Assembly (NCBI GenBank): GCA_947382485.1
Contig: CANCYS010000004.1
Location: 6,385 to 70,384 of the forward strand
Length of the DNA: 64,000 bases
Source of the DNA: an uncultured Clostridia bacterium
GTDB lineage: Bacteria > Bacillota > Clostridia > Christensenellales > UBA1242
Direction of reading: 5' to 3'
Below the pieces are notes generated by a model. It was not told the DNA's origin. It saw nothing but the letters and a program-made list of their open reading frames with translations, and ran no database searches. Shown one piece after another: positions 2 to 57,467 of the stretch (position 1 is the first letter of the stretch; every line of letters begins with the position of its first letter). The translations under genes were made by a program, and so were the position numbers.

Positions 2-385
2 GAATTTTCAAAAAGTTTTGTTGAAGAATATATGAAATATAATTCAGGTGCAGAACAAGAGTTTAAAATTTTAAGTGAAGTTTCAACAATTTTGGAAACT
101 GAATATAGCCCAAAAGCTGCTGAAACATATAAGCCTTTATATGATTTTTGTGTTAATTACAAAGATAATGTTGATCAAAGTAAAATAGATAAAGGTGTTG
201 TGGGAATTTCTGTTATCAGTGGAGTTATAAGTATTGCATCTTTATTAGAAGGTGTGGTTCTTATTCATAACCAACTTGATGATAGTTGTTTAACTTGGGC
301 AAAAACTCTTATGAATAGATATAGATATTTCATGAATGAATATAAGAAAGAAGAAAAAAAAGAAAAGAAAGGTTTGGAAAAATAA
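2..385 (+). CDS. hypothetical protein, probably 5'-truncated by the window edge (internal ATG at 32)
   Basis: Frame is open from nt 2 to TAA 383-385. No convincing RBS before ATG 32. One hydrophobic segment (VVGISVISGVISIASLLEGVVLI) and a K/E-rich tail. No family recognised. Confidence 0.4.
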   Translation, partial: EFSKSFVEEYMKYNSGAEQEFKILSEVSTILETEYSPKAAETYKPLYDFCVNYKDNVDQSKIDKGVVGISVISGVISIASLLEGVVLIHNQLDDSCLTWAKTLMNRYRYFMNEYKKEEKKEKKGLEK

Positions 386-7228: not shown

Positions 7229-7753
7229 ATGAAGGTTAGTGTAAAAACAGGTGATACCGTCTTAGTCAATTCTGGAAAAGACTCTGGTAAAAAGGGTAAG
7301 GTATTAGCCGTTATTAAAGAAGAAAAAAGAGCAAGAGTTATTGTTGAAGGCGTAAATATTGTGACAAAAGCAAAGAAAGCTAGAAGTGCACAAGACAAGA
7401 GCGAATTCGTTAAAAAAGAAGCAGCTATTGATGTTTCTAATGTTAATGTAGTTTGTCCATCTTGTGGTCTTGCAGTTCGTATTGCACACAAAGTTAACGG
7501 AGACAACAAAATCAGAGTATGCTCAAAATGTGGTGCAGGTCTTGATGCTAAATACGTTAAAGACGCAAAAGCAAAAAAGACTGAAAAGCCAGTAAAAGAA
7601 GAAAAATCAGCAGACAAAACTGCAAAAGCAGAAAAACCTGCAAAAACTGAACAAAAGTCGAAAGCAAAATCAGTGGTAACTGACGAAAAAGCAACAAAAG
7701 TTGCAGTAGCAAAGAAACCACAAACATCAAGATCAGCCCAAAGAGGAGTGTAG
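7229..7753 (+). CDS. rplX: 50S ribosomal protein L24 (uL24), zinc-ribbon variant with a long K/A-rich C-terminal tail
   Basis: Start moved to ATG 7229 (MKVSVKTGDTVLV), 8 nt after the AGGAGGA RBS; the track start 7196 overlaps rplN. KOW motif GKDSGKKGKV, then CPSC...CSKC, then a roughly 70-aa tail; 174 aa in total. Confidence 0.9.
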   Translation: MKVSVKTGDTVLVNSGKDSGKKGKVLAVIKEEKRARVIVEGVNIVTKAKKARSAQDKSEFVKKEAAIDVSNVNVVCPSCGLAVRIAHKVNGDNKIRVCSKCGAGLDAKYVKDAKAKKTEKPVKEEKSADKTAKAEKPAKTEQKSKAKSVVTDEKATKVAVAKKPQTSRSAQRGV

Positions 7754-7756
7754 TTT

Positions 7757-8323
7757 ATGGCAACAAAAAAAGCAGAGTCTGGTGTTAGACTTAAAGATAA
7801 ATATGTAAATGATGTTGTTCCAGCACTTGTTAAAGAATTTGGTTACAAAAATATCAATGAAGTTCCAAAACTTGAAAAAATTGTTTTAAGCATGGGACTT
7901 GGTGATGAAAAAGATAACTCAAAGAGTTTTAACATCGCTGTTGAAGAACTTGCTGCTATTTCTGGTCAAAAGCCAATCGCAACAACTGCTAAAAAGTCTG
8001 TTGCAAACTTCAAACTTCGTCAAGGTCAAAAGATTGGTGCAAAAGTTACTCTTCGTGGAACAAGAATGTATGAGTTTTTAGATAGACTTATTGCAATCGC
8101 AATTCCAAAAATCAGAGATTTTAGAGGAATTGATGCAACAACAGGTTTTGATGGAAAAGGTAACTATTCATATGGTATTAAAGAACAATTAATTTTCCCA
8201 GAAATCATTTATGATAAAATTGAGAAAATTAGAGGTTTTGATATCAACTTTGTTACAACCGCAAAAACTGATAATGAAGCTAGGGTGCTACTTAAACTCT
8301 TAGGAATGCCTTTCAAGGCCTAG
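7757..8323 (+). CDS. rplE: 50S ribosomal protein L5 (uL5)
   Basis: 188 aa, [22 protein letters not shown]...; operon position. Confidence 0.95.
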
Positions 8324-8353
8324 CGAGTAAATGAAGGAAGCAAGGAGAAAAAA

Positions 8354-8539
8354 ATGGCAAAAAAAGCAATGATAAATAAACAACAAAGACCACAAAAATA
8401 TAAAACTCGTGAATACACAAGATGTTCAATTTGTGGTAGACCTCATTCAGTTCTCAGAAAATATGGCATTTGCCGTATCTGTTTCAGAGAACTCGCATAT
8501 AAGGGTCAAATACCTGGCGTTAAGAAGGCTAGCTGGTAA
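8354..8539 (+). CDS. rpsN: 30S ribosomal protein S14, short zinc-binding type Z (uS14)
   Basis: 61 aa, CSICGRPH...CRICFRE, ends KKASW. Confidence 0.95.
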
Positions 8540-8552
8540 GGAGGAAGAGATA

Positions 8553-8948
8553 ATGGTTAATGATTCAATTGCAGACATGCTCACTCGTATAAGAAATGCA
8601 CAAACAGCTCATCACGAATCAGTTACAGTTGAAAATTCAACAATGAAAAATTCAATTGCACAAATTTTGCTTGATGAAGGTTACATTTCTTCATTCGAAG
8701 TTGTAGAAAATGGCAAATTTAAAAATCTTGTTATTAACTTAAAATATGTAAATAAAAATCAAAAAGTAATTACTGGCTTAAAGCGTATTTCTAAACCAGG
8801 TCGTAGAATCTATGCAAGCAGTGAAGATCTTCCAAAAGTTCTTGGTGGTCTTGGAATTGTTATAGTTTCAACATCAAAAGGTGTAATGACTGATAGAGAA
8901 GCTAGAAAGCTCGGTATTGGTGGCGAAGTTCTCGCCTATGTATGGTAA
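8553..8948 (+). CDS. rpsH: 30S ribosomal protein S8 (uS8)
   Basis: Start moved to ATG 8553 ([17 protein letters not shown]) after the GGAGGAAGAG RBS; the track start 8409 lies inside rpsN. 131 aa. Confidence 0.95.
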
Positions 8949-8960
8949 GGAGGAAGAATT

Positions 8961-9524
8961 ATGAGTCGTATAGGTAAAGCTCCGATTGTTCTCCCTGATG
9001 GCGTAACTTATGAAGTTAGTGCTGAAAACTATGTAACAGTGACTGGTCCAAAAGGAAAACTTGAACAACAAATCACTGGAAACATCAGTTTAACCAACGT
9101 AGAACACGAGGGCAAAAAAGCAATCTTGCTTGTTGCAAATGACAATCAAGCAGAAACAAACGCAAAACACGGTTTATATCGTGCACTTGTTGCAAACATG
9201 GTTACAGGTGTTTCACAAGGCTTCACAAAGTCTGTAAGCATCAATGGTGTCGGTTTCAAAGTGGCAGTTCAAGGCAACAAAATTGTATTGAATATAGGTT
9301 TCTCACATCCAGTAAATGTGGAAATCCCACAAGGACTCACAGTAACATGTCCATCAGCAACAGAAATGGTTATTGCTGGTATCAGCAAAGAAAAAGTTGG
9401 TCAGTTTGCTGCTGACATAAAAGCAATCAAAAAAGTCGAACCATATCATGGATATGGCATCTACTACACAAACGAACATGTGCGCAGAAAAGAAATCAAG
9501 AAGACAACTTCTGGCAAAAAGTAG
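8961..9524 (+). CDS. rplF: 50S ribosomal protein L6 (uL6)
   Basis: 187 aa, MSRIGKAPIVLPDGV start. Confidence 0.95.
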   Translation: MSRIGKAPIVLPDGVTYEVSAENYVTVTGPKGKLEQQITGNISLTNVEHEGKKAILLVANDNQAETNAKHGLYRALVANMVTGVSQGFTKSVSINGVGFKVAVQGNKIVLNIGFSHPVNVEIPQGLTVTCPSATEMVIAGISKEKVGQFAADIKAIKKVEPYHGYGIYYTNEHVRRKEIKKTTSGKK

Positions 9525-17291: not shown

Positions 17292-17996
17292 ATGGAATTA
17301 GAAAAATCAAAAATTTTACCAATTGCAGTTTTAAGACCACATGATTCTCAAATCAATCCTATAAATTTCAGAAGTCAATATCGCTTGCATAAAGGCGACC
17401 CATATATTCCAAGAATTTATGATTATAATGCAATATTTAGAAAAATTTTTGGTAAACATCAAGGCAAAAAGAATCTGCATATTCTAAATATATATGATTA
17501 TTTTAAGTTTATTAACGCATTGGATTATTTGGAGCATGGACAAATAAATGAGATTAATATTCTTAAAGAAAATGAATGTTTTAAATCCATAGAATCAGTC
17601 GAAAGTGGTTGGAGAAAAATTATTGTAGAAGATAAAATCTCTCAAACTCCAATTAGAGAATTATATATTTCTAATAATGGTGTTGTTTTTGAACGTCAAG
17701 AATTAGTAAAAGATAAATCTGTGCCAGAAGAACTTTATTTTGCTGATATAGAATATGAAGTAGAAGATTTTGAATATATTGATTCAAAATATTATAGTGA
17801 AGAATATCAAGATTTTATGAATAATTATTATGCGACGGCGATTGCTAGGGTTGATGAAATGATTGCTGCCTTTGGAAAAGATGACTATGGTCTAGTCACA
17901 GGACAACTTCTTATTTTAAAAGATATAATCAAAGAAAAGTATGAAAAAGAAATTGCAAATCAACAAGCATTAAAAAATCAAAGCAATCCAAATTAA
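17292..17996 (+). CDS. hypothetical protein (Y/D/E-rich, no family recognised)
   Basis: 234-aa ORF with its own promoter, an AGAGG RBS and a terminator. No TM segment or signal peptide. Confidence 0.55.
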   Translation: MELEKSKILPIAVLRPHDSQINPINFRSQYRLHKGDPYIPRIYDYNAIFRKIFGKHQGKKNLHILNIYDYFKFINALDYLEHGQINEINILKENECFKSIESVESGWRKIIVEDKISQTPIRELYISNNGVVFERQELVKDKSVPEELYFADIEYEVEDFEYIDSKYYSEEYQDFMNNYYATAIARVDEMIAAFGKDDYGLVTGQLLILKDIIKEKYEKEIANQQALKNQSNPN

Positions 17997-18163: not shown

Positions 18164-19840
18164 TTAAAGTAACATAACTGAAATTTGACATAGAATTATA
18201 AGCGATAAAACATCGACAATTGTTGTGATAAATGGACTAGCCACAACTGCTGGGTCAAGTTTGCATTTTTTTGCAAGTAGTGGTAAAAGTGCACCAACTA
18301 TTTTTGAAATACAAATTGTTAAAAACAAAGCAAGAGAAACGATGAAAGAGATTTTAACAGAATATCCATAGCCAAAAATTAAATTGTCAATCAGCATAAG
18401 TTTTGCAAAGCAAGCAATTCCAAGTACCAGTGCAACAACAATTGCGACACGAATTTCTTTCCATAAGACTTTGAAAGTATCTTTAAAGGAAACTTCACCT
18501 AGTGCAATAGATTGAATAATGGTTACCGATGCTTGGCTTCCTGCATTACCGCCAGAACCCATAATCATTGGAATACATGCAATTAAGAGTGGGCTCAAAT
18601 TACTTTCATATTCATTAATAACAAGTCCAGTAAACGTTGAAGTTATCAACAGAAGTAAAAGCCAAGGTATACGATTGCTAAAAATTTTAAATGTTCCAGT
18701 TTGAAAATATGGTTTATTTGTTGGTGTAATAGCCGCCATTTTGCTAATATCTTCTGATGCTTCTTCTTGAATGACATCAATAGCATCGTCGATAGTAACA
18801 ATACCATTAATACGGTTTTCGCTGTCCACAACAGGAATAGCAAGAAGGTCATATTTAGAAAGCATTTGAGATACTTCTTCTTTGTCGGTATGTGTATATG
18901 CTGCAATAAAGTTGGTTTGCATGAAATCGCCAACTTTATCTTTCGGATTATGTAAAATAATATCTTTTGCAGAAACAGTTCCAAGCAAATGTTTTTGGTC
19001 GTCGGTAACATAGCATGTATAAATAGTTTCTTTGTCAAGAGCTTGTTTACGCATTTTAGCAAGTGCTTCTTCTGCGGTCATTTTAGAGCGAAGGGTAATG
19101 CACTCAGTTGTCATAATAGTTCCAGCACTGTCTTTTGGAAAACCTAAAAGTTTGTTTATTGATTCTCTGTTTTCAGGTTTAGAAACTTTCAAAATACGAA
19201 TAACAACATTCGAAGGCATTTCTTCAATAAGGTCAATTGTGTCGTCAATAAAAAGGTCGTCAATGATAAATGATAACTCTTTGTCAGTAAAAGTTTTTAT
19301 CAAAATTTCTTGTTTGTCGCTGTCCATTTCAATAAACACTTCACTTGCAAGGTCTTTTGGAAGAATCCTAAAAAGAATTGCAACATTGTCATCATCAATG
19401 TCATTAATAATATCCGCAACATCAATAGGTTCCATTTCAGCCAAAATTGGTTTAAGAGTGCTGAACTTTTTGTTTTCAATATTTTCAATAATTTCAAGCA
19501 ACTTTTCATGTCGGTCATCTGCTTGTGCTTTAAGCATAATTTCTTTGAAAACTTCTTTGTCAAGTTCATTTTCAATATCCTTATCAAGCAGTTCTTCCAT
19601 GATTGGTTTAAATTCAATATCACTTATATTTTCAATCAAAAATGTTTGTAATTCAACAGACAAAACCATAAAAGCATCAGCAACTTTTGATGCTGGAAGT
19701 TTCGGAACAATATGCACCAAAATTGGTTTTTCAATTTTTGAAAGTGCAGAAGCAAGTTCATCAGCACCAGATGTTTTAGCCAATTCTTCAAGTTCGTCAA
19801 AACTTTCGGTGTCAAAAAGAGCCACAATCTTTTTATGCAT
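18164..19840 (-). CDS. mgtE: magnesium transporter MgtE
   Basis: Start moved to ATG at 19840 (MHKKIVALF...), after the AGGAGG RBS. N-domain, CBS pair and C-terminal TM domain (GGNAGSQASV, PFITTIVDV). Confidence 0.88.
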   Translation of the reverse strand: MHKKIVALFDTESFDELEELAKTSGADELASALSKIEKPILVHIVPKLPASKVADAFMVLSVELQTFLIENISDIEFKPIMEELLDKDIENELDKEVFKEIMLKAQADDRHEKLLEIIENIENKKFSTLKPILAEMEPIDVADIINDIDDDNVAILFRILPKDLASEVFIEMDSDKQEILIKTFTDKELSFIIDDLFIDDTIDLIEEMPSNVVIRILKVSKPENRESINKLLGFPKDSAGTIMTTECITLRSKMTAEEALAKMRKQALDKETIYTCYVTDDQKHLLGTVSAKDIILHNPKDKVGDFMQTNFIAAYTHTDKEEVSQMLSKYDLLAIPVVDSENRINGIVTIDDAIDVIQEEASEDISKMAAITPTNKPYFQTGTFKIFSNRIPWLLLLLITSTFTGLVINEYESNLSPLLIACIPMIMGSGGNAGSQASVTIIQSIALGEVSFKDTFKVLWKEIRVAIVVALVLGIACFAKLMLIDNLIFGYGYSVKISFIVSLALFLTICISKIVGALLPLLAKKCKLDPAVVASPFITTIVDVLSLIILCQISVMLL

Positions 19841-19861: not shown

Positions 19862-20035
19862 TAATCCCTCACGGGATTCACGAAAATTAACCCCGTCCAA
19901 GCTTCAACTCCGAAGGGCAATGAAATTGCATTAGGTTTTCCCTTGTTTTCGAGAAGACCTGTTAACCGACATAAAAAAGTCTCCTTTTAAATGCGGCATC
20001 AACCCGTATCCCTTTGGTAGCCTTGCCTACCGTTT
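19862..20035 (-). promoter_or_regulatory. M-box (ykoK-type) Mg2+ riboswitch with intrinsic terminator, controlling mgtE
   Basis: The minus-strand transcript reads GGTAGGCAAGGCTACC...GGGATACGGGTTGATGCCGC...GTCGGTTAACAGG...AATGCA...GGAGTTGAAGCTTGGACGGGGTTAA. This resembles the M-box consensus as I recall it. It is followed by an AATCCC-GTGA-GGGATT hairpin plus a U-run abutting the RBS. Confidence 0.8.
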
Positions 20036-20050
20036 TTAAATACACTTATA

Positions 20051-20079
20051 ATTATAATTTTGAACAAAATATATGTCAA
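20051..20079 (-). promoter_or_regulatory. sigma-70 type promoter for M-box/mgtE
   Basis: On the minus strand: TTGACA (20079-20074), 17-nt spacer, TATAAT (20056-20051). Confidence 0.75.
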
Positions 20080-20218: not shown

Positions 20219-22561
20219 ATGAATTTTATAGAAACAATATATAATAAAATACTTTTAATGAAAAGGTCAAAATTTAGTCTAGATGATGTAGCAAAATATA
20301 CAGGTTTAGAATATGGCTTTGATAAAAGAACATTATCAAAAACACTTGATACACTTGCAAAGCAAGGCAAGTTAAGCAAATTAAAATCAGGCGATTATGC
20401 ACTCAATTTAAAAGAAGAACTCATTAAATGCACACTTCTTGGAACAAGCAAAGATTATGCCTTTGCAAGACCAATTTCAGGTGAAAAAGATAGAGATATC
20501 TTCATTTCCAGTGCAAACTTAAATGATGCTTGCCATGGTGACACAGTCATGGTTGAAGTTGGTATTTCTGGAAAAGATAGAAAATATAAAATGAATCTTC
20601 CTCTTGTAGCAAAAGGAAAAAGAGAAGGCCGAGTTGTTGAAATTATAGAACGTGGTTATAAGGTTGTTGTTGGAATTTTGTCAATAACAGATAGAGGTGT
20701 GGCAACAATTCTTCCAGATGATCAAAGGTTCACAGATTCAGTTTTTGTTGCCTCAACAGACCTTATGGGAGCAACAAATAACACCAAGGTTGTTGCAGAA
20801 ATAATAGATTATCCATCAAACATCAAAATGGCAAAGGCAAGAATTATTGAAATTTTAGGTGACCCAAAAGATGCCAGAGTAACAACTCTTTCAATAATTC
20901 GTTCATATAATTTATTTGAAGAATTTCCAGAAGAAGTTGTTTTAGAAGCAAAAAAAGTTAACAAACCAATCAGTGAAGAAAATCAAAACGGAAGAAAAGA
21001 TTATCGTGACAAACTAATCATCACCATTGATGGTGACGATGCAAAAGATTTTGACGATGCAATTTCAATAGAAAAAGTTGATGAAAACTATAAACTTGGA
21101 GTATACATTGCAGATGTTTCGCATTATGTAAGGTCAGGTTCAAAACTTGATGAAGAAGCGTTCAAAAGAGGCACATCTGTATATTTTCCAGACCATGTTC
21201 TTCCAATGCTTCCAGTTGAACTTTCAAATGGCATATGTTCACTTAATCCAAACGAAGATAGGTTTGTGCTTGCGGTTGAAATGCTTGTAAACAATCAGGG
21301 CAAGGTTGAAGACTACGAAATTCATAAGGGCATAATAAAGTCTGCATATCGCATGACATACAATAAAGTAAATAAAATTTTAAATGGAGATACCAATCTT
21401 TGCTCGGAGTATAAAGACATTGTACCAATGCTTCATCAAATGGTTGAATTATCAAAAATTTTAATTAAACGTAGAGAAAATGCTGGCGAACTTGATTTTG
21501 ACATTCCAGAAGCAGAAATAGTATTAAATGATGACGGGACAGTCAAAGACATTCATCGTAAGCCAAGAGAAGATTCAGAGAGATTGATTGAACAATTCAT
21601 GGTTCTCACAAATGAAGTAGTAGCACGCCACTTTGACAATATGGACACTCCATTTGTTTATCGTGTTCATGAAATACCAGTTGCAACAAAAATGAAAAAT
21701 TTTAGAGATTTTGCAGGTAGCCTAGGATTAACATTCAAAACTGCTGGAAAAGAACCAAGTCCAAAAGATTTCCAAAAACTTCTTGTTGAAGGTAGGGGAA
21801 AAGATTATTCTTCTGCACTTTCAAAAGTTATGCTCAGAAGCATGCAAAAAGCAAGATATGAAACTGAAAATCTTGGACACTTTGGTTTGGCACTTAAAGA
21901 CTATTGTCATTTCACATCGCCAATTAGAAGATATCCCGACCTATCAATTCATAGAATAATTTCTGATGTACTTTCAGGAGAAATGACTGATAAAAAAGTA
22001 AAGTTTTATGAAGATTTCGTTGCTGAGTCAGCAGAGCGTAGTAGCACAACTGAAAGAACTGCCGAAGAAGCAGAAAGAGCAGTTGACAACCAAAAGAAAG
22101 CAGAATATATGCAAAGCAAAATAGGTGAGTGCTATGAAGGTACAGTTTCTGGCGTAACAGAAAATGGTGTTTATGTAGAACTTGAAAACACTGTCGAAGG
22201 CTTCATGTCAATTCAAAGACTTCCTGTTGGACGATATGAATATAGTGAATCAAAGTATATGCTTCAAGGCGTTGGCAGAACTTTCCGCATTGGTGATAAA
22301 ATCAATATTCGTGTTGTTGAGGTTGACATTGTCACAAAGCATATTGATTTTGAATTAGAAGATTTTCATAGGGAAATTTCCGAAGAAGATAAGTCTTATA
22401 ACTTTGCAACAAATGTTGATGAAAACTCCAAAGCAAAATCACACAAAGGTGAACGTGGTGCAAGACATGGCAGACATAGTGGTGGACATCAAAAACAAAA
22501 TGGTTTTAGTCATAAATATTCAGACCATTCTTTTAAAAAATTCAAAAAGAAACATAGATAA
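20219..22561 (+). CDS. rnr: ribonuclease R (RNase II/VacB family 3'-5' exoribonuclease)
   Basis: 780 aa. RNB domain motifs (IDGDDAKDFDDAIS, HFGLA...YCHFTSPIRRYPD), an S1 domain and a basic H/K/G-rich C-terminal tail. Confidence 0.9.
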   Translation: MNFIETIYNKILLMKRSKFSLDDVAKYTGLEYGFDKRTLSKTLDTLAKQGKLSKLKSGDYALNLKEELIKCTLLGTSKDYAFARPISGEKDRDIFISSANLNDACHGDTVMVEVGISGKDRKYKMNLPLVAKGKREGRVVEIIERGYKVVVGILSITDRGVATILPDDQRFTDSVFVASTDLMGATNNTKVVAEIIDYPSNIKMAKARIIEILGDPKDARVTTLSIIRSYNLFEEFPEEVVLEAKKVNKPISEENQNGRKDYRDKLIITIDGDDAKDFDDAISIEKVDENYKLGVYIADVSHYVRSGSKLDEEAFKRGTSVYFPDHVLPMLPVELSNGICSLNPNEDRFVLAVEMLVNNQGKVEDYEIHKGIIKSAYRMTYNKVNKILNGDTNLCSEYKDIVPMLHQMVELSKILIKRRENAGELDFDIPEAEIVLNDDGTVKDIHRKPREDSERLIEQFMVLTNEVVARHFDNMDTPFVYRVHEIPVATKMKNFRDFAGSLGLTFKTAGKEPSPKDFQKLLVEGRGKDYSSALSKVMLRSMQKARYETENLGHFGLALKDYCHFTSPIRRYPDLSIHRIISDVLSGEMTDKKVKFYEDFVAESAERSSTTERTAEEAERAVDNQKKAEYMQSKIGECYEGTVSGVTENGVYVELENTVEGFMSIQRLPVGRYEYSESKYMLQGVGRTFRIGDKINIRVVEVDIVTKHIDFELEDFHREISEEDKSYNFATNVDENSKAKSHKGERGARHGRHSGGHQKQNGFSHKYSDHSFKKFKKKHR

Positions 22562-22576
22562 TAAAATTATAAAAAT

Positions 22577-22606
22577 TAAAAAAACAGGCAACAGCCTGTT
22601 TTTTTA
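22577..22606. terminator. bidirectional rho-independent terminator
   Basis: A7-ACAGGC-AACA-GCCTGT-T7, between convergent rnr and the 216-aa gene. Confidence 0.85.
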
Positions 22607-22613
22607 TTTAATA

Positions 22614-23264
22614 TTAATTGCTTCCATCGCCAGGTTGTCCACCAGTTGGTTGTCCTTGTGGCTTAGCATTCTCATAGTCTTTAATCATTTGTGTCATCCA
22701 ATACATAATAGATGATCTCTCAGGTTTTAAGAAACTATTTCCATGTGCTTGATTGTGTTCTTTCATACAACTGAGATTTTTAATAAAATCTATTGTATTT
22801 CTATCTTTTAAATCAGAACTTTGACCAAGTGATTTTAATTTTCTGTTTAGTTCTGTGCAAACATAAGACGCAATAGTTTCGGCGTGTTTAAACATATACC
22901 TATTTAAGTTTTCTTTTGCCTCTTGATTTTTCATAATCTGTTCATATCTTTCAACTGCAATTTCAGGCATACCATTAAAAAAGAAGTCACGTCTAAGATT
23001 ATCAACACTAGAAAAGTCATAAGTAGATGGAATCAAAGGAATTTCAATATTAATAACCGAATTATCTTTTGTTACAGTTGTATTGCTATTTTTAATAAAC
23101 TGAATATTGATAATTTTAGGAATACCACTTTCGGTTACATATGATAATTCACCAACAATAAACTGTTGTAAATTTGCAGAATTATCTTTGTCATTAACTT
23201 TAGTGTTATTGACAGTTACAGTAGTCTTGTCAACTTTTCTATACTTTTTAATTTCTTCTTTCAT
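22614..23264 (-). CDS. hypothetical protein, shorter paralog of the upstream gene, with a G/Q/P-rich C-terminal tail
   Basis: 216 aa, AAGGAG RBS, 19 nt after the upstream gene's stop. No family recognised. Confidence 0.65.
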   Translation of the reverse strand: MKEEIKKYRKVDKTTVTVNNTKVNDKDNSANLQQFIVGELSYVTESGIPKIINIQFIKNSNTTVTKDNSVINIEIPLIPSTYDFSSVDNLRRDFFFNGMPEIAVERYEQIMKNQEAKENLNRYMFKHAETIASYVCTELNRKLKSLGQSSDLKDRNTIDFIKNLSCMKEHNQAHGNSFLKPERSSIMYWMTQMIKDYENAKPQGQPTGGQPGDGSN

Positions 23265-23283
23265 AATTTTATCTCCTTAACAT

Positions 23284-24417
23284 TTAAAACAAAGGTCCAT
23301 TTTGTCCGTTATTTCCACCATTATTACCATAGTTATTAGGGTCAACATCTTTGTAACTATTACCAAAAAATTCTTCCATAGTTCTTTTAATTTGTTCTTG
23401 AAGTTCCGCTTCAAGTCTTGGACTAGTTTCATATAAACATGCACCGTTTGAGTGAGGTTTGTTATTAACAATAGTCTTAGTTCTGTCAAACCTTCCAAAA
23501 CCAGTCACTGCAATAAGTGTAAGGTCAATCACTTCTTTGACATAAGAATCTTGTGAAGATTTATCTTTAAATAAAACATCAAAAGGTTTTTCTTTATCAA
23601 AGATTGATAAGTTTTCAATAATTTTTTCATATTCACTAATAAATTCATTAGCGGTATGATATGAGTGTGAAAGTGCAATCTTAATATATTTCATAAGCAT
23701 TTCTGCTTGATAAATTCCAATAGATTTTGATGAATAATTTCCAAAGTCATTGTTTAAAGCTTTTGCTCTTTGATAGTATTGTTGCGAAGCACCTCTGTTA
23801 ATAAATTCATAAACGATATTAACAATTTGTGAACTAATATCTGTGCTTTGTTCAATAAGGCTAAGAATTTCATTTGCATGTGAGTTGCAATATTTAATAC
23901 CACTTTTAAAATCAAAATAAGCTTCTTTAATTGTTTCTTCATTTTCTTTGCTGTTAAAGAAGATATATTGCAATAATCCATCTTTAAAAAATTTGATGTC
24001 ATCTTGAACTTCTTTAAGTCTGTTTTTAGGTTCTGTAAATTTCAAAACAAGTTCATCAATAATATCATAAATATGAAAAAATCTTTCATAAGCAACATCA
24101 AGAGTTCTTTCAAATTCACATCTTGGAGGAATAATAGGCAATGTAAGTCTTTTCACCAAATTATCATCTTGAATAATAATAGAATTTTTAGTTGTAGGTG
24201 TTCTATTAACATCTTTAACAAAAGCAAAATCAATTAAAACAGGAAGTCCAGTTCTTGAAGACTCACTTGCAATTTCGGTGAATATACCATCATTGCCAAA
24301 AAGTTCAGAGAAAGAATCAGAAACAGTATTATCTCTTTTTAAATATTTCTTATGGTCAACAATAACTGTATATTGTAAAACGTTGTTAACATTAGCACCA
24401 CCAGCCACCAATCTCAT
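23284..24417 (-). CDS. hypothetical protein with an N/G-rich C-terminal tail
   Basis: Start placed at ATG 24417 (MRLVAGGANV), 8 nt after GGAGG. The track's ATG 24432 overlaps that RBS and sits only about 8 nt from the predicted TSS. 377 aa; no family recognised. Confidence 0.65.
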   Translation of the reverse strand: MRLVAGGANVNNVLQYTVIVDHKKYLKRDNTVSDSFSELFGNDGIFTEIASESSRTGLPVLIDFAFVKDVNRTPTTKNSIIIQDDNLVKRLTLPIIPPRCEFERTLDVAYERFFHIYDIIDELVLKFTEPKNRLKEVQDDIKFFKDGLLQYIFFNSKENEETIKEAYFDFKSGIKYCNSHANEILSLIEQSTDISSQIVNIVYEFINRGASQQYYQRAKALNNDFGNYSSKSIGIYQAEMLMKYIKIALSHSYHTANEFISEYEKIIENLSIFDKEKPFDVLFKDKSSQDSYVKEVIDLTLIAVTGFGRFDRTKTIVNNKPHSNGACLYETSPRLEAELQEQIKRTMEEFFGNSYKDVDPNNYGNNGGNNGQNGPLF

Positions 24418-24446
24418 AGTTTTGTCCTCCATATAATTGTAATAAA

Positions 24447-24475
24447 ATTATAACTCATTTGACACAATTTGTCAA
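24447..24475 (-). promoter_or_regulatory. perfect consensus sigma-70 promoter for the two-gene unknown operon
   Basis: On the minus strand: TTGACA (24475-24470), 17-nt spacer, TATAAT (24452-24447). Confidence 0.75.
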
Positions 24476-24587: not shown

Positions 24588-25031
24588 ATGAAAATAATAA
24601 CCGAAAACAGGGAAGCAAGACATAATTATTTTTTGGAAGATACCATTGAAGCTGGTATAGTTTTGGTTGGCAGTGAAGTAAAGTCACTTGTTTCAGGCAA
24701 AGCAAATTTAAAAGATAGTTATGCACTTGTTCGTGGCGGTGAGGTTTTTTTGATTAATTGTTTCATCTCAAACTTTGAAAAAACAGGTTCATTTGCACCA
24801 GATGAAAGACGAACAAGAAAATTACTTTTAAATAAGCAAGAAATATTAAAACTTGAAAGAAAGGTAAAAGAAAAATCATACACACTTGTTCCAACAAAAA
24901 TGTATTTTTCAAACAATAAAGTCAAAGTTGAAATTGCACTTGGAAAGGGTAAAAAACTATATGACAAAAAAGATGACAAAATGAAAGCAGACTTAAATCG
25001 TTATGCAGAAAGACTAATCAAAAATTCATAG
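24588..25031 (+). CDS. smpB: SsrA-binding protein SmpB
   Basis: 147 aa, NREARHNYFLEDTIEAGIVLVGSEVKSL typical SmpB. Confidence 0.93.
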   Translation: MKIITENREARHNYFLEDTIEAGIVLVGSEVKSLVSGKANLKDSYALVRGGEVFLINCFISNFEKTGSFAPDERRTRKLLLNKQEILKLERKVKEKSYTLVPTKMYFSNNKVKVEIALGKGKKLYDKKDDKMKADLNRYAERLIKNS

Positions 25032-25059: not shown

Positions 25060-25426
25060 GGGGGTGTAAGGTTTCGACAGGTGACAAGAAATGTTATCTA
25101 TAAGCGTGTGTGTGGTCCAGACCCACATAAAAATCTGGAAAAAAATAAACGCAAATAGCGATTCTTTTGCTGCAAATGCAGCAGTTGCTGCTTAGTTATT
25201 AAGCAGACCGGCAACATTTCATCGCTCACTGGTGAAGTGTTGTTGTCAAAAAATAGTGAGATGAAACAGTTTGATGTCAGTGCCTATTGTTTCGAGATTT
25301 AACTGAATTGCTTTAAGATGTTTTGTTTGTTTCAAACTTAAAGTGAAAAACAAAATAAACTGGCACACGAAGAAGGGGTAATCTTTCGTCATTTGGAAGT
25401 GGGTTCGATACCCACCACCTCCACCA
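25060..25426 (+). ncRNA. ssrA: tmRNA (SsrA)
   Basis: 5' GGGGGTGTAAGGTTTCGACAGG; 3' T-arm GTGGGTTCGATACCCAC plus CACCTCCACCA. Tag frame 25151-25195 encodes ANSDSFAANAAVAA then stop. Lies immediately after smpB. Confidence 0.92.
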
Positions 25427-27390: not shown

Positions 27391-27418
27391 AAAGGAACAC
27401 TTAAATTGTGTTCCTTTT
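27391..27418. terminator. bidirectional terminator hairpin
   Basis: AAAGGAACAC-N7-GTGTTCCTTT, between convergent genes. Confidence 0.65.
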
Positions 27419-28259
27419 AATCTTCATCATTTTTTTGTTTAAAAGTAGCAGGTTTTTCTTCCAATTCTTCTGGAATGGTTAACTTTTCTTCTTCGTCCAT
27501 AAATCCCATTTCTTTAAGTGATTGAAGTCTGCCAGAAAGTTGACACATCAAAAATTGTTGTTCAAAGAATCTTTGACCGTCAAAATCCTTCGGATTGTCA
27601 AACAATTCAAAAACCATAGTATTTATATCCTTGTCAGAATCAGCAACATAATTATCAATATATTCTTGTCTGTATTCTTCAAGTTTGTTTGATTTTTCAA
27701 ATTCTTGTGCCCAGCCATCAATGTCATCTTTAAAAAAGCCAAAGTCAGTGCTTGTGAAATGACTTATCATGTTCATCAAAAATCCAAGCCTGTACACATC
27801 AAACTTATCAGCATTCATGTTATTTGTTGCAGGGTTTAAAAACTGTGATTCAAATTGAGGACAAGGAGTTTTAGAAACTACTTTTGCATCTTCTTCTTGA
27901 TAAAAATAATCTTTGTTAAAAACTAAAAAACTGCAAGGGTCAAGCACCTTTTCTTGATTAAATTCATCTAAATATTCAATCCACACATGAAATCCAGCCC
28001 ATTTGTAAGGTGGATTAGGACTATTTTTTGCCTCCTCAATATATTGAGCGGTTGTTCCTTCCACAACCATTCCGTCAGGAACAACATGAGCAAACCATCT
28101 TGCAAGAAGTTCGCAGTTTGTTGGAGCAAACCAAGATGACCCAGCAATCAAATGTAAAGGCACACCACCCACATTAAAATTGCTGAGCAATTTCAAATGT
28201 TGGAGATATTCATAAAAAGAATAAGCATTCTCTTTTTTCAAAGTTCTTTTAACAATCAT
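27417..28259 (-). CDS. hypothetical protein with a transglutaminase/papain-like Cys-His-Asp arrangement and an acidic C-terminus
   Basis: 280 aa. C49 (PTNCELLARWF), H91 (GFHVWIEY) and D107 (VLDP) have the spacing typical of transglutaminase-like cysteine peptidase cores. Confidence 0.4.
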   Translation of the reverse strand: MIVKRTLKKENAYSFYEYLQHLKLLSNFNVGGVPLHLIAGSSWFAPTNCELLARWFAHVVPDGMVVEGTTAQYIEEAKNSPNPPYKWAGFHVWIEYLDEFNQEKVLDPCSFLVFNKDYFYQEEDAKVVSKTPCPQFESQFLNPATNNMNADKFDVYRLGFLMNMISHFTSTDFGFFKDDIDGWAQEFEKSNKLEEYRQEYIDNYVADSDKDINTMVFELFDNPKDFDGQRFFEQQFLMCQLSGRLQSLKEMGFMDEEEKLTIPEELEEKPATFKQKNDED

Positions 28260-38643: not shown

Positions 38644-39240
38644 ATGAAAAGATATGTTCCTCATCACATCAAAGGTCGTGTTCCATCAGGCAGAAACAGT
38701 TTTGGTTATAAAGAAAGAAAAGGAAAACTTAAAAATAATGCTGGAAGCACATTTATGAGAATCCAAATTCTAAGACCAAGAGAAGAAAGTCGAAAAACAG
38801 AATTATTAAAATATGGCATAGTTTCATACAAAAAACCAAAGTATGATGAATATATGGTTGAATTTGATAATCATCAAAATTCATTTCCACATTTTCATCT
38901 TTGGAGAACAAATGGCTATTCGAAAATCAGTGACACTCGAAGCTCTGCAATCAGCCTAAGTTCAAATATCAATGATGGCATTGAATATAGTTATAGGGAA
39001 AGAGAGAAAGAAGCAAAATTAAATGACATTCAAAGTGAACAAATTCTAGATTTTATTTGTGAAAACAGATTTTTACTCTTTTGTATGTATAATGCTTTTA
39101 GACAAGGCAAGGTTAAAAGTTTCGTAGGCCTTGATGAGCATTTTGTATACAGCTTGTTCAGTAAGGCAGAAATGTCTGCAATCAAACAAAAGTATACACT
39201 TCAAATCAAGCAAACAGACATTCCAGAGTTTTCTAAATAA
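38644..39240 (+). CDS. hypothetical protein with a DUF4160-like PHFH motif
   Basis: 198 aa. YMVEFDNHQNSFPHFHLWR resembles the DUF4160 core (H-x-PPHFH). A TTGAAA-17-TAATAT promoter lies upstream. Confidence 0.5.
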   Translation: MKRYVPHHIKGRVPSGRNSFGYKERKGKLKNNAGSTFMRIQILRPREESRKTELLKYGIVSYKKPKYDEYMVEFDNHQNSFPHFHLWRTNGYSKISDTRSSAISLSSNINDGIEYSYREREKEAKLNDIQSEQILDFICENRFLLFCMYNAFRQGKVKSFVGLDEHFVYSLFSKAEMSAIKQKYTLQIKQTDIPEFSK

Positions 39241-39289
39241 TATGTAAAAAAGATTGATAAAAATAAAAAAAAGTGATAATATATAATCA

Positions 39290-39415
39290 TTCCATAAAGA
39301 GTGTGCGAGGGGCAAGCCTGTTGACCACACAGCAACCTGCAAATTTGGCAAGGTGCTAATGCTTGTATTCTATGGGCAAAGGTAAAATCATGTCCCATAG
39401 TTTATGGGATTTTTT
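39290..39415 (+). promoter_or_regulatory. SAM riboswitch (S-box / SAM-I clan) with terminator, upstream of metK
   Basis: CCATAAAGAG...GAGGGGCAAGCCTGTTGACC...GCAACC...AAGGTGCTAAT...CTATGG. Followed by a TCCCATA-GTT-TATGGGA hairpin plus a T-run, whose left arm competes with the P1 3' strand. P4 appears very short. Confidence 0.7.
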
Positions 39416-39447: not shown

Positions 39448-40533
39448 ATGAGAAAAATAATTACTAGTGAATCAGTAAACATTGGTCATCCAGACAAAAC
39501 CTGTGACACAATTGCAGACGCATTTTTAGACGAAGCATTAAGTCAAGACAAAAATGCACAAATGGCAGTTGAGTGTGCAATAAAAAATAATAAACTATTT
39601 ATTTATGGTGAATCTACCACAACTGCAAAAATTGATTATGACAAAATTGCGAAAGAAGTTTTAAAAGATATTGGATATGAAAACGATTTTGAAATAATAA
39701 AAGAAATTTCAAAGCAAAGTCCAGACATCACACAATCAGTTGTCAAAAGTGAACTCATGGCAAATGACCAAGGAATGGTATATGGCTATGCAACAAATGA
39801 AACAAAAGAATATATGCCACTTTCAATTGTCATTGCACACAAACTCATGAAAAAATATGATGAGTATAGAAGAACCACAAAAAAATATTTTGCTGATGCA
39901 AAAAGTGAAGTTTCTGTTGCATACGACAATGACCAACCAGATGAAATTGTTTCAGTGCTTGTCAGTGTTTCTCACTCAGAAAGTGTGACACACAATGAAA
40001 TTGAAAAAGATGTAATGGAAAATGTAATCACACCAGTACTTTCAGAGTATAGCGAACTTGTTACTAGTGAAATTAAGTATTATATCAACACCAGTGGCAG
40101 ATTCACAATTTGGGGAAGTTTTGGCGATAGCGGTTGTGTAGGAAGAAAAATTATTGTTGACACCTATGGCGGAATTGGTAGAGTAGGCGGAGGTTGTTTC
40201 AGTTCCAAAAATGCAACCAAGGTCGATAGAAGTGGAGCATATTATGCAAGATATATTGCAAAAAACATAGTAGCACATGGTTTTGCTGACAAATGTGAAG
40301 TGCTTGCAAGTTTTGCAATAGGTCTTCCAGAACCAATAAGCATGTACATTGAAACATTCGGAACAAACAAAGTTAAACTCAAAGATATTGAAGAATATGT
40401 AAACAAAAATTTCAATTTCAGATTAGATAATATAATCAAAGAACTTGATTTGCTCAGACCAATTTATAAAGAAACTGCATGTTTCGGACACTTTGGTAGA
40501 GAACAATTCCCTTGGGAAAAAATTAAGGATTAA
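39448..40533 (+). CDS. metK: S-adenosylmethionine synthetase
   Basis: 361 aa, SESVNIGHPDKTCDTIADAFLD...GDSG...GGGCFSSKNATKVDRSGAY. Confidence 0.88.
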   Translation: MRKIITSESVNIGHPDKTCDTIADAFLDEALSQDKNAQMAVECAIKNNKLFIYGESTTTAKIDYDKIAKEVLKDIGYENDFEIIKEISKQSPDITQSVVKSELMANDQGMVYGYATNETKEYMPLSIVIAHKLMKKYDEYRRTTKKYFADAKSEVSVAYDNDQPDEIVSVLVSVSHSESVTHNEIEKDVMENVITPVLSEYSELVTSEIKYYINTSGRFTIWGSFGDSGCVGRKIIVDTYGGIGRVGGGCFSSKNATKVDRSGAYYARYIAKNIVAHGFADKCEVLASFAIGLPEPISMYIETFGTNKVKLKDIEEYVNKNFNFRLDNIIKELDLLRPIYKETACFGHFGREQFPWEKIKD

Positions 40534-41746: not shown

Positions 41747-42631
41747 ATGACAACATTACAAATTGTTTTACTTTCCATTATAGGAGTTTGCACCGCACTT
41801 TCAATAGTTTTTATGATAATGTTCATTGTTGAAATTTGCAAAACAAATAAAGATGAAGAAGAAGTTGTAGAAGTTAAAAGTGTTTTTGATGAATATAACG
41901 GAAGCGAAACCACAGAAGAAAAAGAACAACCACAATCAAACGTAACAAACATCAACATCATGCTTGCAAGTCTTGAAGATCAAACAAAAGACGAAGTAGT
42001 TGAAGAACCTGTAAAAGAAGAAGTTGTTGAAGAAGAAATCGTTGAAGAAGTTGTTGAAGAACCTGTAAGAGAGGAAGTTGAAGAACAACCAGTTGAAGTT
42101 GAAAATGAAGAATCAGAAGAAGATGAAAATTCTGATGAAGAAATTGAAGTTCCTGAAATTGTTGAAACTCCACATGAACCTTCTGTAATCATAATTGAAA
42201 ACGGTTCAGAATTCGACTATAAAACTCGTTTAGAGCAAATCACTCAAAACAGAGATAAAATTGATAAAGATTTAACAAAAATCCAAAAATCAATTTTGAA
42301 ATATGAAAGAACAAAAAGAAGAATGAACAGAAACCAAAAAATGCTCGACAGACGTGCTGGTGAACTCACAAACCTCAACCTTGTTATGTATAGCGTAACA
42401 GACATCAAAAATGTTGATGAAGAAAAGAAAGCAAAACAAGAAGAACTCACAGCACACATCGCAGAACTCAAAGCATCAATTCAAGACGCTGAGGAATTCA
42501 TTGAAAGCAACAACCAAAAGAATGAACACAATGTTAAAATGGCAAAGTTCCTTCTCAGAGAAAAGGCTAGATACAATGATGAAATTGCTCAACTTAAAGA
42601 GTTAATCAAAAAAGCCGAAGAAAATAAGTAA
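41747..42631 (+). CDS. membrane-anchored protein with an acidic E/V repeat region and a C-terminal coiled coil
   Basis: 294 aa. N-terminal TM (IVLLSIIGVCTALSIVFMIMFIV), EVVEEPVKEEVVEEE repeats, then K/E-rich heptad-like sequence. Confidence 0.6.
   Translation: MTTLQIVLLSIIGVCTALSIVFMIMFIVEICKTNKDEEEVVEVKSVFDEYNGSETTEEKEQPQSNVTNINIMLASLEDQTKDEVVEEPVKEEVVEEEIVEEVVEEPVREEVEEQPVEVENEESEEDENSDEEIEVPEIVETPHEPSVIIIENGSEFDYKTRLEQITQNRDKIDKDLTKIQKSILKYERTKRRMNRNQKMLDRRAGELTNLNLVMYSVTDIKNVDEEKKAKQEELTAHIAELKASIQDAEEFIESNNQKNEHNVKMAKFLLREKARYNDEIAQLKELIKKAEENK
41991..42160 (+). repeat. imperfect in-frame tandem repeat (GTTGAAGAA-rich) encoding the E/V-rich region
   Basis: AGTAGTTGAAGAACCTGTAAAAGAAGAAGTTG recurs as AGTTGTTGAAGAACCTGTAAGAGAGGAAGTTG about 53 nt later. 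Confidence 0.6.
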
Positions 42632-45053: not shown

Positions 45054-45104
45054 CAGTTATATCAAAAAGGTTTATTATAAATATTGAGAGAAAGTAGGTT
45101 GTTT

Positions 45105-46229
45105 ATGGAAGATATTGAAGCAAGAGAATATGTCACATTAAAGGCACTTTCTGAGAAAATCATCTCAGGAGTTTCGCCAGCGATAGCAAAAGTAACAAAG
45201 GTGATAGAAAAGTTCGTCACTGAAATTGACATGCTTGAAAAGCAACTCGAAAATTCTGTTGACATAAAAGAAATCAATAAGCTTTCAAAACAATCCCAAG
45301 AAAAAAGAGATGAACTTATCAAGTTTCTTGCAATAAAAAATAGATTAGATATGTTTGTTTCGCGAAATAAATCAAGGATAGAATATTTTAAAGAAATTTT
45401 AAAAGTTGAAGCAATTTATCAAGAAACTTTTGATAAAAAAGCATTGCAAAAACTAGAAGATAGTGAACTTGAAAACATTTCAGAACATTCATTAAATTTA
45501 AACAAAAATCAAAGCGTTCCAATGCCAAAATATGTAGCAGGAAAAATTTTGTATTTCAAAGGACAAACCTTAGATTTGTCAATCCCAGAAAATAAAGAAA
45601 TCATTTTAAGTGTAGATGCCGACTATTTAAGACAACTCATTTCAATGTTTCCAAAGTCAGTATCAACAATTTCAGCTGATGAACTTGTAAAGGTAAAGTT
45701 CAAGCAAATGCTGTTAAAAGAAATTGCGTTCTATGTTCATAGTAGGTTAAAAGATAAAGACATCAGAGAAATAAATGCAGATTTAGGTGATTTGTTAAGT
45801 TTCAGAAATGAAATAACAAACACTTTCGAAGGTTATGTTGCAGGCGTTCAAAACATGTTTAATTATATAGTTAAAAACTATGTAAAAGAAAAACTCCCTG
45901 AAAGGTTTGAAGAAATTGACAAAAAACTTAAATGTAATGAAGATTCTTCTCTCATTCCAGAGCATAGAAAGAAAATCAGTGTAGTTGTTCCAGTGATTGA
46001 AGTTGATGAAAAAATCGAGGTTGAAACTGAAATCGTTGAACCAGAGTATGAAGAAAAACAAGAAGGCACCAGAAAGTCAATGGTCAGCAAAGAACTCACC
46101 GAAATTTATGGTGGAGAAACTTCTCCAAAGAAAGAACCTGAAGAAAAAGAAGATGACGGCATGGTTGAAGGATTAAGCAAAGAAATTTTAGAACTATACG
46201 GTATTGATGTTGCTGGTGATGAGGAATAA
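45105..46229 (+). CDS. hypothetical coiled-coil protein with an acidic C-terminus
   Basis: Start taken at ATG 45105 (MEDIEAREY); the track start is TTG 45084. 374 aa. A repeated C-terminal motif (SKELTEIYGGE / SKEILELYGID). No family recognised. Confidence 0.55.
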   Translation: MEDIEAREYVTLKALSEKIISGVSPAIAKVTKVIEKFVTEIDMLEKQLENSVDIKEINKLSKQSQEKRDELIKFLAIKNRLDMFVSRNKSRIEYFKEILKVEAIYQETFDKKALQKLEDSELENISEHSLNLNKNQSVPMPKYVAGKILYFKGQTLDLSIPENKEIILSVDADYLRQLISMFPKSVSTISADELVKVKFKQMLLKEIAFYVHSRLKDKDIREINADLGDLLSFRNEITNTFEGYVAGVQNMFNYIVKNYVKEKLPERFEEIDKKLKCNEDSSLIPEHRKKISVVVPVIEVDEKIEVETEIVEPEYEEKQEGTRKSMVSKELTEIYGGETSPKKEPEEKEDDGMVEGLSKEILELYGIDVAGDEE

Positions 46230-56000: not shown

Positions 56001-57467
56001 ATGAAAAAATTTTTGAGTTTAGTTTTTTGTGTAATTTCAAGCATAATGTTTTTTATGCTTGCTTTTAATGTGAACTTAACTCAAACAAATGCTGAAAATT
56101 TGACATCATCAATATTTACAGAAAACGATATAAAAAACAAAGAAGATATTATTAGTGTAGATAAAAATATTTTTGGTGGTGCAGTTGCAACTGTTGGAAA
56201 TTCACCTTTTGATGAAGAAACCGATACATTGATGGATGGATACACAATAACTCCAAATTCAGACGCATACAATCAAGTTGATTGGTCAGTGGGTGTTTCA
56301 GGATTCACATTATCATTTAGTCAATCAGTTTATATGTGGGTATATTTGCCTTGTGACCCAGATTATAATTTATACACTCTCAAATTAACTATAACTGACA
56401 TTTCAAAAAATTTAAAACTCACTTGGGAATATGAACATAGTCAACTTGTTGATATGATATCTAAAATAGCGATTGGTGATAAAAATTATGGTTGGGTGTT
56501 GTTTGAATTAAACCCTGCAACAACTGGTGTTAGTTCAGAAGAACTTGTTGATGCAAATTTCACAAGACTTGGAATCAGTTATAATAGTGAAATCCCAGAA
56601 CTTGCTATCAAAGTAAACAACAACGCTTTGTCATTTTATCATGTGTATAAAGGTGATAGTGTAAAAAATTCATCTGGAATTATAATAAAACAAAAATATG
56701 CAATATATAAGTTTGCAGAAAGTTATCTTGGAAATAAAATTGCACATATTGGTGACACTTACAAATTTGATTTTAAGAACATTTTTGAATATATCTATAT
56801 AGGAAAGTATGACATGTATAAATATTCCATTGAAGGCTACACATGGAACATTTCACTTAAAGATAGTTATTCAAAGGTCATAGATTTAAACGCAAATCAA
56901 GAATATGTTTTTGAGCGAGTTGGCTGGTATTCAGTTAATATTACACTAAAAGAACGAAACCATATAATTTCGAATGATGAAAATCAAGGTTTAAATATTG
57001 ATAAATTTATTTTCAGTGTTTCTTCAAGTATAAAGTGTGAAGAATATTCTCTTGGTACTTTTGGAAATCCAAAATATACAATTCCAACAAATAATGAATA
57101 TATTGTAACTTTCAAATTTTATGATGGCTTTAAAATATATGGTGATTTTGAAATTTCAACTAGTGATGAAAAAGTTGCTGTAATAGATTCCTATTCATTT
57201 GATGAAGACACAAAAACCATTTATATAAAGGTAAATACTAAAAAAAGTGGAAATATACAACTTAATATTGAAGCCAATGGTTTCATGGACGATAAAAACG
57301 AATTAAGCGAATATTCAAGGTCTTGCAATTTGGTTGTTAAAGGCGAAAATGCGAGTACAAAATTATCAACCATATTTTTATGGGTAATTTTGGGCATATA
57401 TGGCGTTGCTTTGGTGGTTTTTGTCGTAATTTCTGTTGTAAAATCTAGACAAAATAGTGTAAAATAA
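56001..57467 (+). CDS. surface protein with an N-terminal signal peptide and a C-terminal TM anchor; no family recognised
   Basis: 488 aa. Signal-like MKKFLSLVFCVISSIMFFMLAFNV...TNA; C-terminal IFLWVILGIYGVALVVFVVISVV followed by KSRQ. Confidence 0.6.
   Translation: MKKFLSLVFCVISSIMFFMLAFNVNLTQTNAENLTSSIFTENDIKNKEDIISVDKNIFGGAVATVGNSPFDEETDTLMDGYTITPNSDAYNQVDWSVGVSGFTLSFSQSVYMWVYLPCDPDYNLYTLKLTITDISKNLKLTWEYEHSQLVDMISKIAIGDKNYGWVLFELNPATTGVSSEELVDANFTRLGISYNSEIPELAIKVNNNALSFYHVYKGDSVKNSSGIIIKQKYAIYKFAESYLGNKIAHIGDTYKFDFKNIFEYIYIGKYDMYKYSIEGYTWNISLKDSYSKVIDLNANQEYVFERVGWYSVNITLKERNHIISNDENQGLNIDKFIFSVSSSIKCEEYSLGTFGNPKYTIPTNNEYIVTFKFYDGFKIYGDFEISTSDEKVAVIDSYSFDEDTKTIYIKVNTKKSGNIQLNIEANGFMDDKNELSEYSRSCNLVVKGENASTKLSTIFLWVILGIYGVALVVFVVISVVKSRQNSVK

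Follow-up and report, generated by a model that had tools for sequence, protein, structure and literature searches.

Which proteins are encoded by two genes that lie on the opposite strand between rnr and smpB, a pair of housekeeping genes whose contiguous order is widely conserved, and what might such proteins do there? The question is raised by a stretch of 64,000 nucleotides from an uncultured Clostridia bacterium (GTDB lineage Christensenellales, UBA1242; assembly GCA_947382485.1, contig CANCYS010000004.1, positions 6,385 to 70,384 of the forward strand), to which we refer as the window and whose first letter is position 1. The two genes, here called A and B, constitute an operon that is inherited vertically, restricted to one clade and under selection. 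Their products are, as judged by sequence comparison, distant paralogs whose similarity is clear in an N-terminal domain about 110 residues long, and by sequence and limited structural comparison the family that they make up belongs to no known kind and is new in that sense.

An operon between rnr and smpB

The elements of the operon are as follows.

23284..24417, minus strand: gene A, an open reading frame (ORF) of 377 residues
22614..23264, minus strand: gene B, an ORF of 216 residues
23265..23283, minus strand: A-B spacer of 19 nt, ATGTTAAGGAGATAAAATT, with an AAGGAG ribosome-binding site
24418..24446, minus strand: short 5' leader of A, with a Shine-Dalgarno GGAGG at 24426-24430
24447..24475, minus strand: promoter of the operon, sigma-70/sigma-A type, TTGACA-17-TATAAT, matching the consensus at 12 of 12 positions
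22577..22606, both strands: bidirectional intrinsic terminator, common to the convergent rnr and A-B transcripts

The start of A at 24417 agrees with all orthologs and with the database entry; a mechanically called ORF of 382 residues begins at an ATG at 24432 that overlaps the GGAGG site and is used as a start by no ortholog. The terminator is a 13-bp hairpin with an A-tract on one side and a T-tract on the other, and so reads as a terminator both ways. A preliminary description of the window had seen here an antisense operon of two genes, each behind its own ribosome-binding site and the whole bracketed by this terminator and a perfect promoter, and every one of these elements is present. 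At 27-29%, the GC content of A and B is slightly below the window mean of 32% and close to that of other lineage-specific genes.

The same description held that the pair had been inserted antisense into an ancestrally contiguous rnr-smpB(-ssrA) cluster, and two sources agree with it. Ten outgroup Bacillota loci, retrieved with the RNase R of the window, carry smpB on the same strand after rnr at a gap of 16-92 nt, and a contiguous rnr-smpB order is listed for B. subtilis, S. pneumoniae, Listeria, Staphylococcus and others (PMC3534368 Table 1). Given these narrow outgroup gaps, the A-B pair is to be read as an insertion, and in this clade a 2-kb antisense block separates rnr from smpB. There is precedent for an intervening gene, namely surE in the secG-rnr-surE-smpB arrangement of C. 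botulinum (PMC3534368 Table 1). The neighbours concerned are these.

20219..22561, plus strand: rnr (RNase R), convergent with B; Pfam OB_RNB, CSD2, RNB and S1 on the identical protein
24588..25031, plus strand: smpB, divergent from A; Pfam SmpB
25060..25426, plus strand: ssrA (transfer-messenger RNA, tmRNA), tag ANSDSFAANAAVAA; found by ARAGORN and by Rfam RF00023 at 151 bits
24542..24556, plus strand: TATAATGTTCTTGAT box upstream of smpB, the putative -10 element of smpB-ssrA
18164-19840, minus strand: mgtE

In comparison with the secG-rnr-smpB(-ssrA) clusters of Gram-positive bacteria, the order and orientation of rnr, smpB and ssrA are the same, and some of those species likewise have an intervening gene. 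The locus differs from them in that the interval is filled by two genes for uncharacterised proteins, which form a convergent operon with a promoter of its own, in that mgtE rather than secG lies upstream of rnr, and in that smpB appears to carry a conserved -10 box of its own. All five lineages that carry the family have the reverse complement of that box, ATCAAGAACATTATA, in conserved or nearly conserved form, and the box is probably a separate smpB-ssrA promoter, one that was either gained or kept after the insertion had parted smpB from rnr. The history that we envisage is that A-B entered the interval between rnr and smpB in an ancestor of one narrow group of Clostridia-like gut bacteria, of low GC content and probably able to form spores, and that smpB-ssrA, once separated from rnr by this event, would have been transcribed on its own.

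The family is confined to few sequences. A word-indexed search of 5.8e9 clusters (90% identity) recovered two A and three B clusters, to which a five-sequence profile added one more, and an exhaustive HMMER search of 1.84e9 representatives (clusters at 50% identity) with a two-sequence A profile found four clusters in total. No homolog of A or B was found by tblastn in phage or plasmid records, and the A profile had no match in metagenome and viral scans, IMG/VR included. A scan for the conserved leader DNA motif gave no match, nor did a scan of GTDB genomes for B, in which the peptide patterns were too specific. The five lineages are the window species, L001/L002, L090-95, L096-97 and L089, and in all of them the order runs smpB (divergent), A, B (except in L089), rnr (convergent), mgtE, rplQ-rpoA. 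The rnr-smpB site is occupied by the pair, or by A without B, at every recovered locus; where A stands alone, in L089, it is followed by 39 nt and a terminator before rnr. The constancy of the site, together with the lack of matches in phage, plasmid and IMG/VR records, argues against the cargo of a mobile element or prophage, and no meaningful flanking repeats or other marks of mobile elements were found at the window locus.

Both genes diverge rapidly and remain constrained. In L089, L090 and L096 the neighbouring proteins are 68-79% identical to those of the window and A is 34-38% identical, while B reaches about 37-38% in the relatives compared. Against L001, the closest lineage, the ratio of nonsynonymous to synonymous substitution rates (dN/dS) is 0.27 for A, 0.27 for B, 0.09 for rnr and 0.015 for smpB; A and B are therefore real genes under purifying selection, but their rate of evolution is several times that of the genes around them. 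In independent ENA, JGI, NCBI and Logan assemblies the variants are intact and 98-100% identical, with 99-100% for gene A. A minor observation concerns the synonymous rate of B itself (22614-23264 against L001 3665-4315), which at 0.31 is about a third of the value for rnr and smpB on either side (about 0.96) and is also lower than the value for A (0.74); selection on the mRNA or on codons could be responsible, as could recent recombination.

Paralogy and a domain without known relatives

The resemblance between the two proteins, claimed in the preliminary description from a collinear N-terminal segment, is recovered by four kinds of comparison. BLASTP aligns A54-115 with B44-97 at E = 3e-6; in a six-frame tblastn of the window the sole significant match of each protein is the other (E = 3e-4 to 7e-4); with a growing set of orthologs the hhalign E-value of A against B falls from 1.4e-3 to 2.4e-4 and then to 1.1e-4 (the last with a permissive alignment); and when the family hidden Markov models (HMMs) are run against 1473 ORFs from the window and related loci, the other family always ranks next after the model's own. 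Six columns of a joint nine-sequence alignment are invariant in both families, namely D34, P59, K68, N86, P94 and P97 in the numbering of A. The relationship probably extends over the whole length, in that permissive hhalign also pairs A "KYCNS…" with B "SYVCT…" and A "IIENLSIF" with B "FIKNLSCM", albeit with low posterior support, and the comparison suggests that A is equivalent to B with some 80 helical residues inserted. A and B would thus have arisen by duplication and would follow one plan of N-terminal domain, helical bundle and flexible tail.

about residues 9-110 of A: N-terminal alpha/beta domain
about residues 1-100 of B: paralogous N-terminal domain

This domain is a previously undescribed alpha/beta domain of about 110 residues, with the order strand-helix-strand-strand and the signature G-x-P-x-x-I-x-x-x-[FI]-[VI]-K ... 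N ... P-[LI]-[IM]-P. Beyond it, A continues in a long stretch of helices that includes a conserved block (241-300, YIKxxLSHSYHxANE…IIKNLSIY…P[FY]D) and ends in a G/N-rich tail closing with NGPLF; its conservation peaks in the core of the domain (41-100), in the 241-300 block and around SNGxxLYE. B continues in a helical bundle with invariant C136 and C166 and closes with the tail KPQGQPTGGQPGDGSN. The AlphaFold2 model of B has a predicted local distance difference test (pLDDT) score of 61 and a predicted template modelling (pTM) score of 0.60, and shows a unit of strand 12-19, helix 28-46, strand 50-57 and strand 70-77 packed on six helices, with the final 40 residues disordered. The model of A is poor (pLDDT 40) and unusable, with an order of elements as in B followed by about 250 helical residues.

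Searches against known families and folds returned nothing consistent. With the window proteins and all orthologs as queries, Pfam, NCBIfam, PHROGs and PADLOC gave best scores of 12-20 bits against cut-offs of 27-185, and no family was matched by more than two of the five members scanned in either the A or the B family. Sequence and profile searches of the PDB with A, B and the joint N-terminal domain retrieved coiled-coil noise only (Spc25, BAG1, designed repeats), and Foldseek, run with the B model against PDB and BFVD and with the A model against PDB, found nothing below E = 0.01. The claim that the two proteins can be placed in no family has accordingly stood: these searches yield no confident family or structure match, the similarity between A and B is detectable, and the pair is never found at unrelated loci.

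Two weak structural themes nevertheless recur, and each bears on an alternative account of the pair. The first is a likeness to PD-(D/E)XK proteins of the YqaJ/lambda-exonuclease type, a likeness that consists of the small alpha/beta N-terminal domain and non-significant Foldseek matches. Both low-confidence models match such proteins, among them the YqaJ recombinase (E = 0.012), a Myoviridae exonuclease fragment (probability 0.80, TM-score 0.45), DUF2800, UL24, tRNA splicing endonucleases and the putative exonuclease 3l0a (21% identity over 91 columns). From this one might suppose that A-B is a conflict system, be it in phage defence, abortive infection or a toxin-antitoxin-like role, possibly built on a degenerate nuclease-like domain. 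The speed at which both genes evolve relative to their neighbours and the two-gene architecture with a strong promoter would suit such a role, as would the PADLOC match of one A ortholog to AbiEii (E = 0.0027, 15.6 bits). That match is, however, the sole one of its kind among 7 proteins, and no PADLOC or PHROG family is matched beyond it. The D...(D/E)xK motif is absent: a Phe stands two before the invariant Lys in both families (K68 of A, K58 of B) and B has no conserved acid in register; TM-scores do not exceed 0.45, and the predicted beta-alpha-beta-beta order lacks one core strand. The distribution is fixed and vertical at one housekeeping locus across the clade, with the loss of B in one lineage as the sole variation in presence, and the locus is without flanking mobile-element repeats. 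The high codon adaptation described below is atypical for defence genes, and a palindrome that might have served as an autoregulatory operator (TTGACAAATTGTGTCAA, 24459-24475, minus strand, overlapping the -35 element) is not conserved in the orthologous promoters. We regard a conflict system as improbable.

The second theme comes from the B model, whose N-terminal domain has a beta-alpha-beta-beta(-beta-alpha)-like form and draws weak Foldseek matches to HPF/YfiA/pY (S30EA) proteins and to the C-domain of IF3 (5x8r_y, 28lu_y, 5mmj_y, 5lms_X, K4F6Q6; E = 0.2-1.9). Considered alongside neighbours that act in ribosome rescue, these matches raise the prospect of an accessory of ribosome rescue or RNA decay that binds ribosomes, RNase R or SmpB-tmRNA and whose location is kept by a functional link. 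In each of the five lineages the pair is indeed found strictly in the rnr-smpB interval, it has a divergent control region in common with smpB, and RNase R and SmpB regulate each other (PMC3534368). Yet among genomes whose neighbouring genes are 70-79% identical such synteny is expected from common descent alone, other genes such as surE also occur in this interval, and the opposite orientation, own promoter and own terminator of A-B imply independent transcription. The structural matches have probabilities of at most 0.16 and TM-scores of at most 0.22, and those to S30EA proteins in particular lie at E = 0.2-0.7 with probabilities of at most 0.12. Neither A nor B matches the S30EA profile of Pfam or resembles these proteins in sequence or profile, and both have instead a long helical bundle and a motif-tipped tail. 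In the window the end of RNase R (...GGHQKQNGF) resembles that of A (...GGNNGQNGPLF), but this similarity is not conserved in relatives, and mimicry of the RNase R tail by the tails of A and B was rejected in favour of a probable low-complexity coincidence. A role in rescue or decay is thus rather unlikely, and its more specific form, a clade-specific pair that binds ribosomes or RNase R/SmpB through a new HPF/SHS2-like beta-alpha-beta-beta domain and whose arrival rewired smpB-ssrA transcription, seems very unlikely.

A third account would make A and B non-classically exported proteins or components of the spore or envelope (coat, appendage or surface), fast-evolving because exposed. Fast evolution, probable abundance and low-complexity tails can be read in this way, and the organism probably sporulates, to judge from a SipL/SPOCS-domain protein encoded at 60293-61765. 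Against it, ten family members have neither a signal peptide nor a transmembrane segment (maximal Kyte-Doolittle means over 19 residues of 0.48-1.53) nor a hydrophobic N-terminus, which extends to the whole family what had been proposed for the window proteins, and no sortase or cell-wall-binding motif is present. Pfam has no match to WXG/LXG or coat families apart from one to YwqH-like at E = 0.068. Sigma factors differ in their promoter consensus, and that of A-B is of the vegetative sigma-A type, not of the sigma-E, -K, -F or -G type. A and B are predicted to be soluble, cytoplasmic proteins, and we consider export or an envelope location quite unlikely.

Expression signals, tails and a possible complex

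Signals for strong expression are conserved to a degree that the coding sequences are not. TTGAC(A/T)-17-TATAAT, a short leader and GGAGG are kept in all five lineages despite strong coding divergence, and the leader ...ACAATTATATGGAGG is conserved in relatives and unique within the window. Spacers between A and B measure 15-32 nt in relatives and contain AAGGAG or AAGAGG, so that tight bicistronic spacing is found in four lineages, and at the corresponding position every relative has a hairpin of A-tract, stem and T-tract whose stem differs in sequence. The terminator hairpin aside, the A-B region has no Rfam match up to E 1 that would indicate a riboswitch or leader RNA. With the 18 ribosomal-protein genes of the window as reference, the codon adaptation index (CAI) of A is 0.76, which ties pyruvate formate-lyase for the top non-ribosomal value and exceeds the ribosomal-protein mean of 0.72. 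High expression of A is likely on these signals, and a single strong, constitutive promoter of the sigma-A type would serve the joint production of both proteins. The expectation of high expression voiced in the preliminary description is supported in its conserved promoter, leader and ribosome-binding sites and in the codon usage of A; it is weakened by the codon usage of B and by the frequency of consensus promoters, to which we return below.

The tails had been characterised as G/N/Q/P-rich low complexity. They are indeed present and flexible; they are not mere low complexity, because the motifs at their ends are conserved. Orthologs of B with only 51% overall identity have exactly the same tail, KPQGQPTGGQPGD, the terminal motif KPxGQPTGGQPGD is kept in the closer B orthologs, and [ND]GP[LF] near the C-terminus is retained in four A lineages. 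The motif at the end of A varies among GPLF, GPFYN and GPLGPN, and B-type tails end in acidic G-D/E residues. As whole proteins, A is acidic in every lineage (isoelectric point 5.3-6.2), and B ranges from 5.2 to 8.4. Bacterial single-stranded DNA-binding protein (SSB) has a disordered linker that ends in a docking tip, ...D-D-D-[IL]-P-F, and the tails of A and B share with it a flexible G/N/Q/P-rich linker and a short conserved end, ...NGPLF in A. The likeness goes no further, as A and B have no Pfam match to OB or SSB families, no predicted OB fold and no acidic D-D-D run in their tails, and their motif varies.

The lineage without B is instructive in this respect. In L089, A ends in KPPEGKQNGDGSD, which is like the B tail KPQGQPTGGQPGDGSN and unlike other A tails; its score against the B tail is twice that against other A tails, and 7 of 5000 composition-preserving shuffles reach its score against the B of the window. 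Such a tail suggests a deletion or fusion that retained the tip of B, and it suggests further that A and B work in one assembly.

We accordingly arrive at a tentative reading, to which we would give a probability of about 0.3: that A and B assemble via their homologous domains into an abundant cytoplasmic scaffold or adaptor complex, whose distinct tail tips recruit partners. The two proteins would pair through their N-terminal domains and helical regions to form an abundant heteromeric complex, and the tips, [ND]GP[LF] on A and acidic G-D/E on B, would dock onto partner molecules. That they act jointly is argued indirectly, from operon linkage, from their co-location everywhere apart from L089, from the shared domain and from the B-like tail of A in that lineage.

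Several observations weigh against this complex. The CAI of B is only 0.67, and B is dispensable in one lineage. A perfect TTGACA-16..18-TATAAT occurs five times in the 64-kb window against 0.18 expected from shuffles, at the following positions.

788 and 63166, plus strand: perfect promoters
38548, 24475 and 20079, minus strand: perfect promoters

Because perfect promoters are this frequent, the one before A-B is by itself no proof of abundance. Among them is the TTGACA-17-TATAAT at 20051-20079 (minus strand), behind which an M-box (Mg) riboswitch at 19882-20041 (minus strand) sits and precedes mgtE, and a consensus promoter before a gene under riboswitch control means that such a promoter alone is no sign of constitutive high output here. 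The orientation of the operon is also contrary to that of most of its neighbours, which is unusual for very highly expressed genes, and the fast evolution of A and B also fits a conflict-related role. The structure models of both proteins were built from shallow alignments, before the deeper ortholog alignments, and the signal in the L089 tail is weak when a more distant B is taken for comparison (183 of 5000 shuffles reach the score). Finally, at least six other ORFs of the window are without a Pfam match, so that orphan status is not exceptional in this lineage. The probability beyond the scaffold or adaptor complex and the three alternatives above goes to something else.

Should A-B be as abundant as its signals suggest, a major cytoplasmic protein of an uncultured gut lineage would have no relatives and no known fold, and the pair would offer a clear case of genes that are either of recent origin or extremely diverged. 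Orphan genes are common in divergent uncultured lineages; what distinguishes this pair is a set of features taken together, namely expression signals that are both strong and conserved, codon usage of ribosomal grade in A, a duplicated architecture with constrained tail motifs, and the break in a gene cluster of wide conservation. It is fixed at one site within a widely conserved housekeeping order and appears to have been duplicated into two specialised subunits, and one lineage seems to have undergone a reduction to one gene that may retain the tail of the second subunit. The family defines a new domain that is a candidate for family databases, and two small soluble proteins make a tractable target for structure determination, though the practical reach is limited by the confinement of the family to about five sequence lineages.

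Further observations on the locus and the clade

The tail-coding ends of three genes at the locus contain imperfect inverted DNA repeats, with 22465-22503 at the 3' end of rnr set against 23297-23324 in A and 22636-22659 in B. In L089 a different pair of adjacent ORFs (7358-8131 and 8156-9220, plus strand; 257 and 354 residues) lies in the rnr-mgtE interval; the two resemble one another at the N-terminus, the tail of the second is highly acidic, and neither has a Pfam match. They were considered as a replacement of the missing B and rejected, being unrelated to A or B.

The RNase R of the window is 70-86% identical to that of the five related metagenomic lineages. Its best matches among GTDB species representatives, in metagenome-assembled genomes of Clostridia and Christensenella, are 42-45% identical, and on this account the clade looks isolated or poorly represented among reference genomes.

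Six ORFs of 198-488 residues elsewhere in the window are without a Pfam match.

17292-17996
27417-28259, minus strand
38644-39240
41747-42631: CAI 0.74
45084-46229
56001-57467

The gene of the SipL/SPOCS-domain protein (plus strand), from which the hint at sporulation comes, has the highest CAI in the window (0.76), and the next ORF after it, 61829-62833 (plus strand), has weak matches to Rho_N and the Rho RNA-binding domain. A SAM (S-box) riboswitch at 39289-39378 (plus strand) lies directly upstream of metK (39448-40533).

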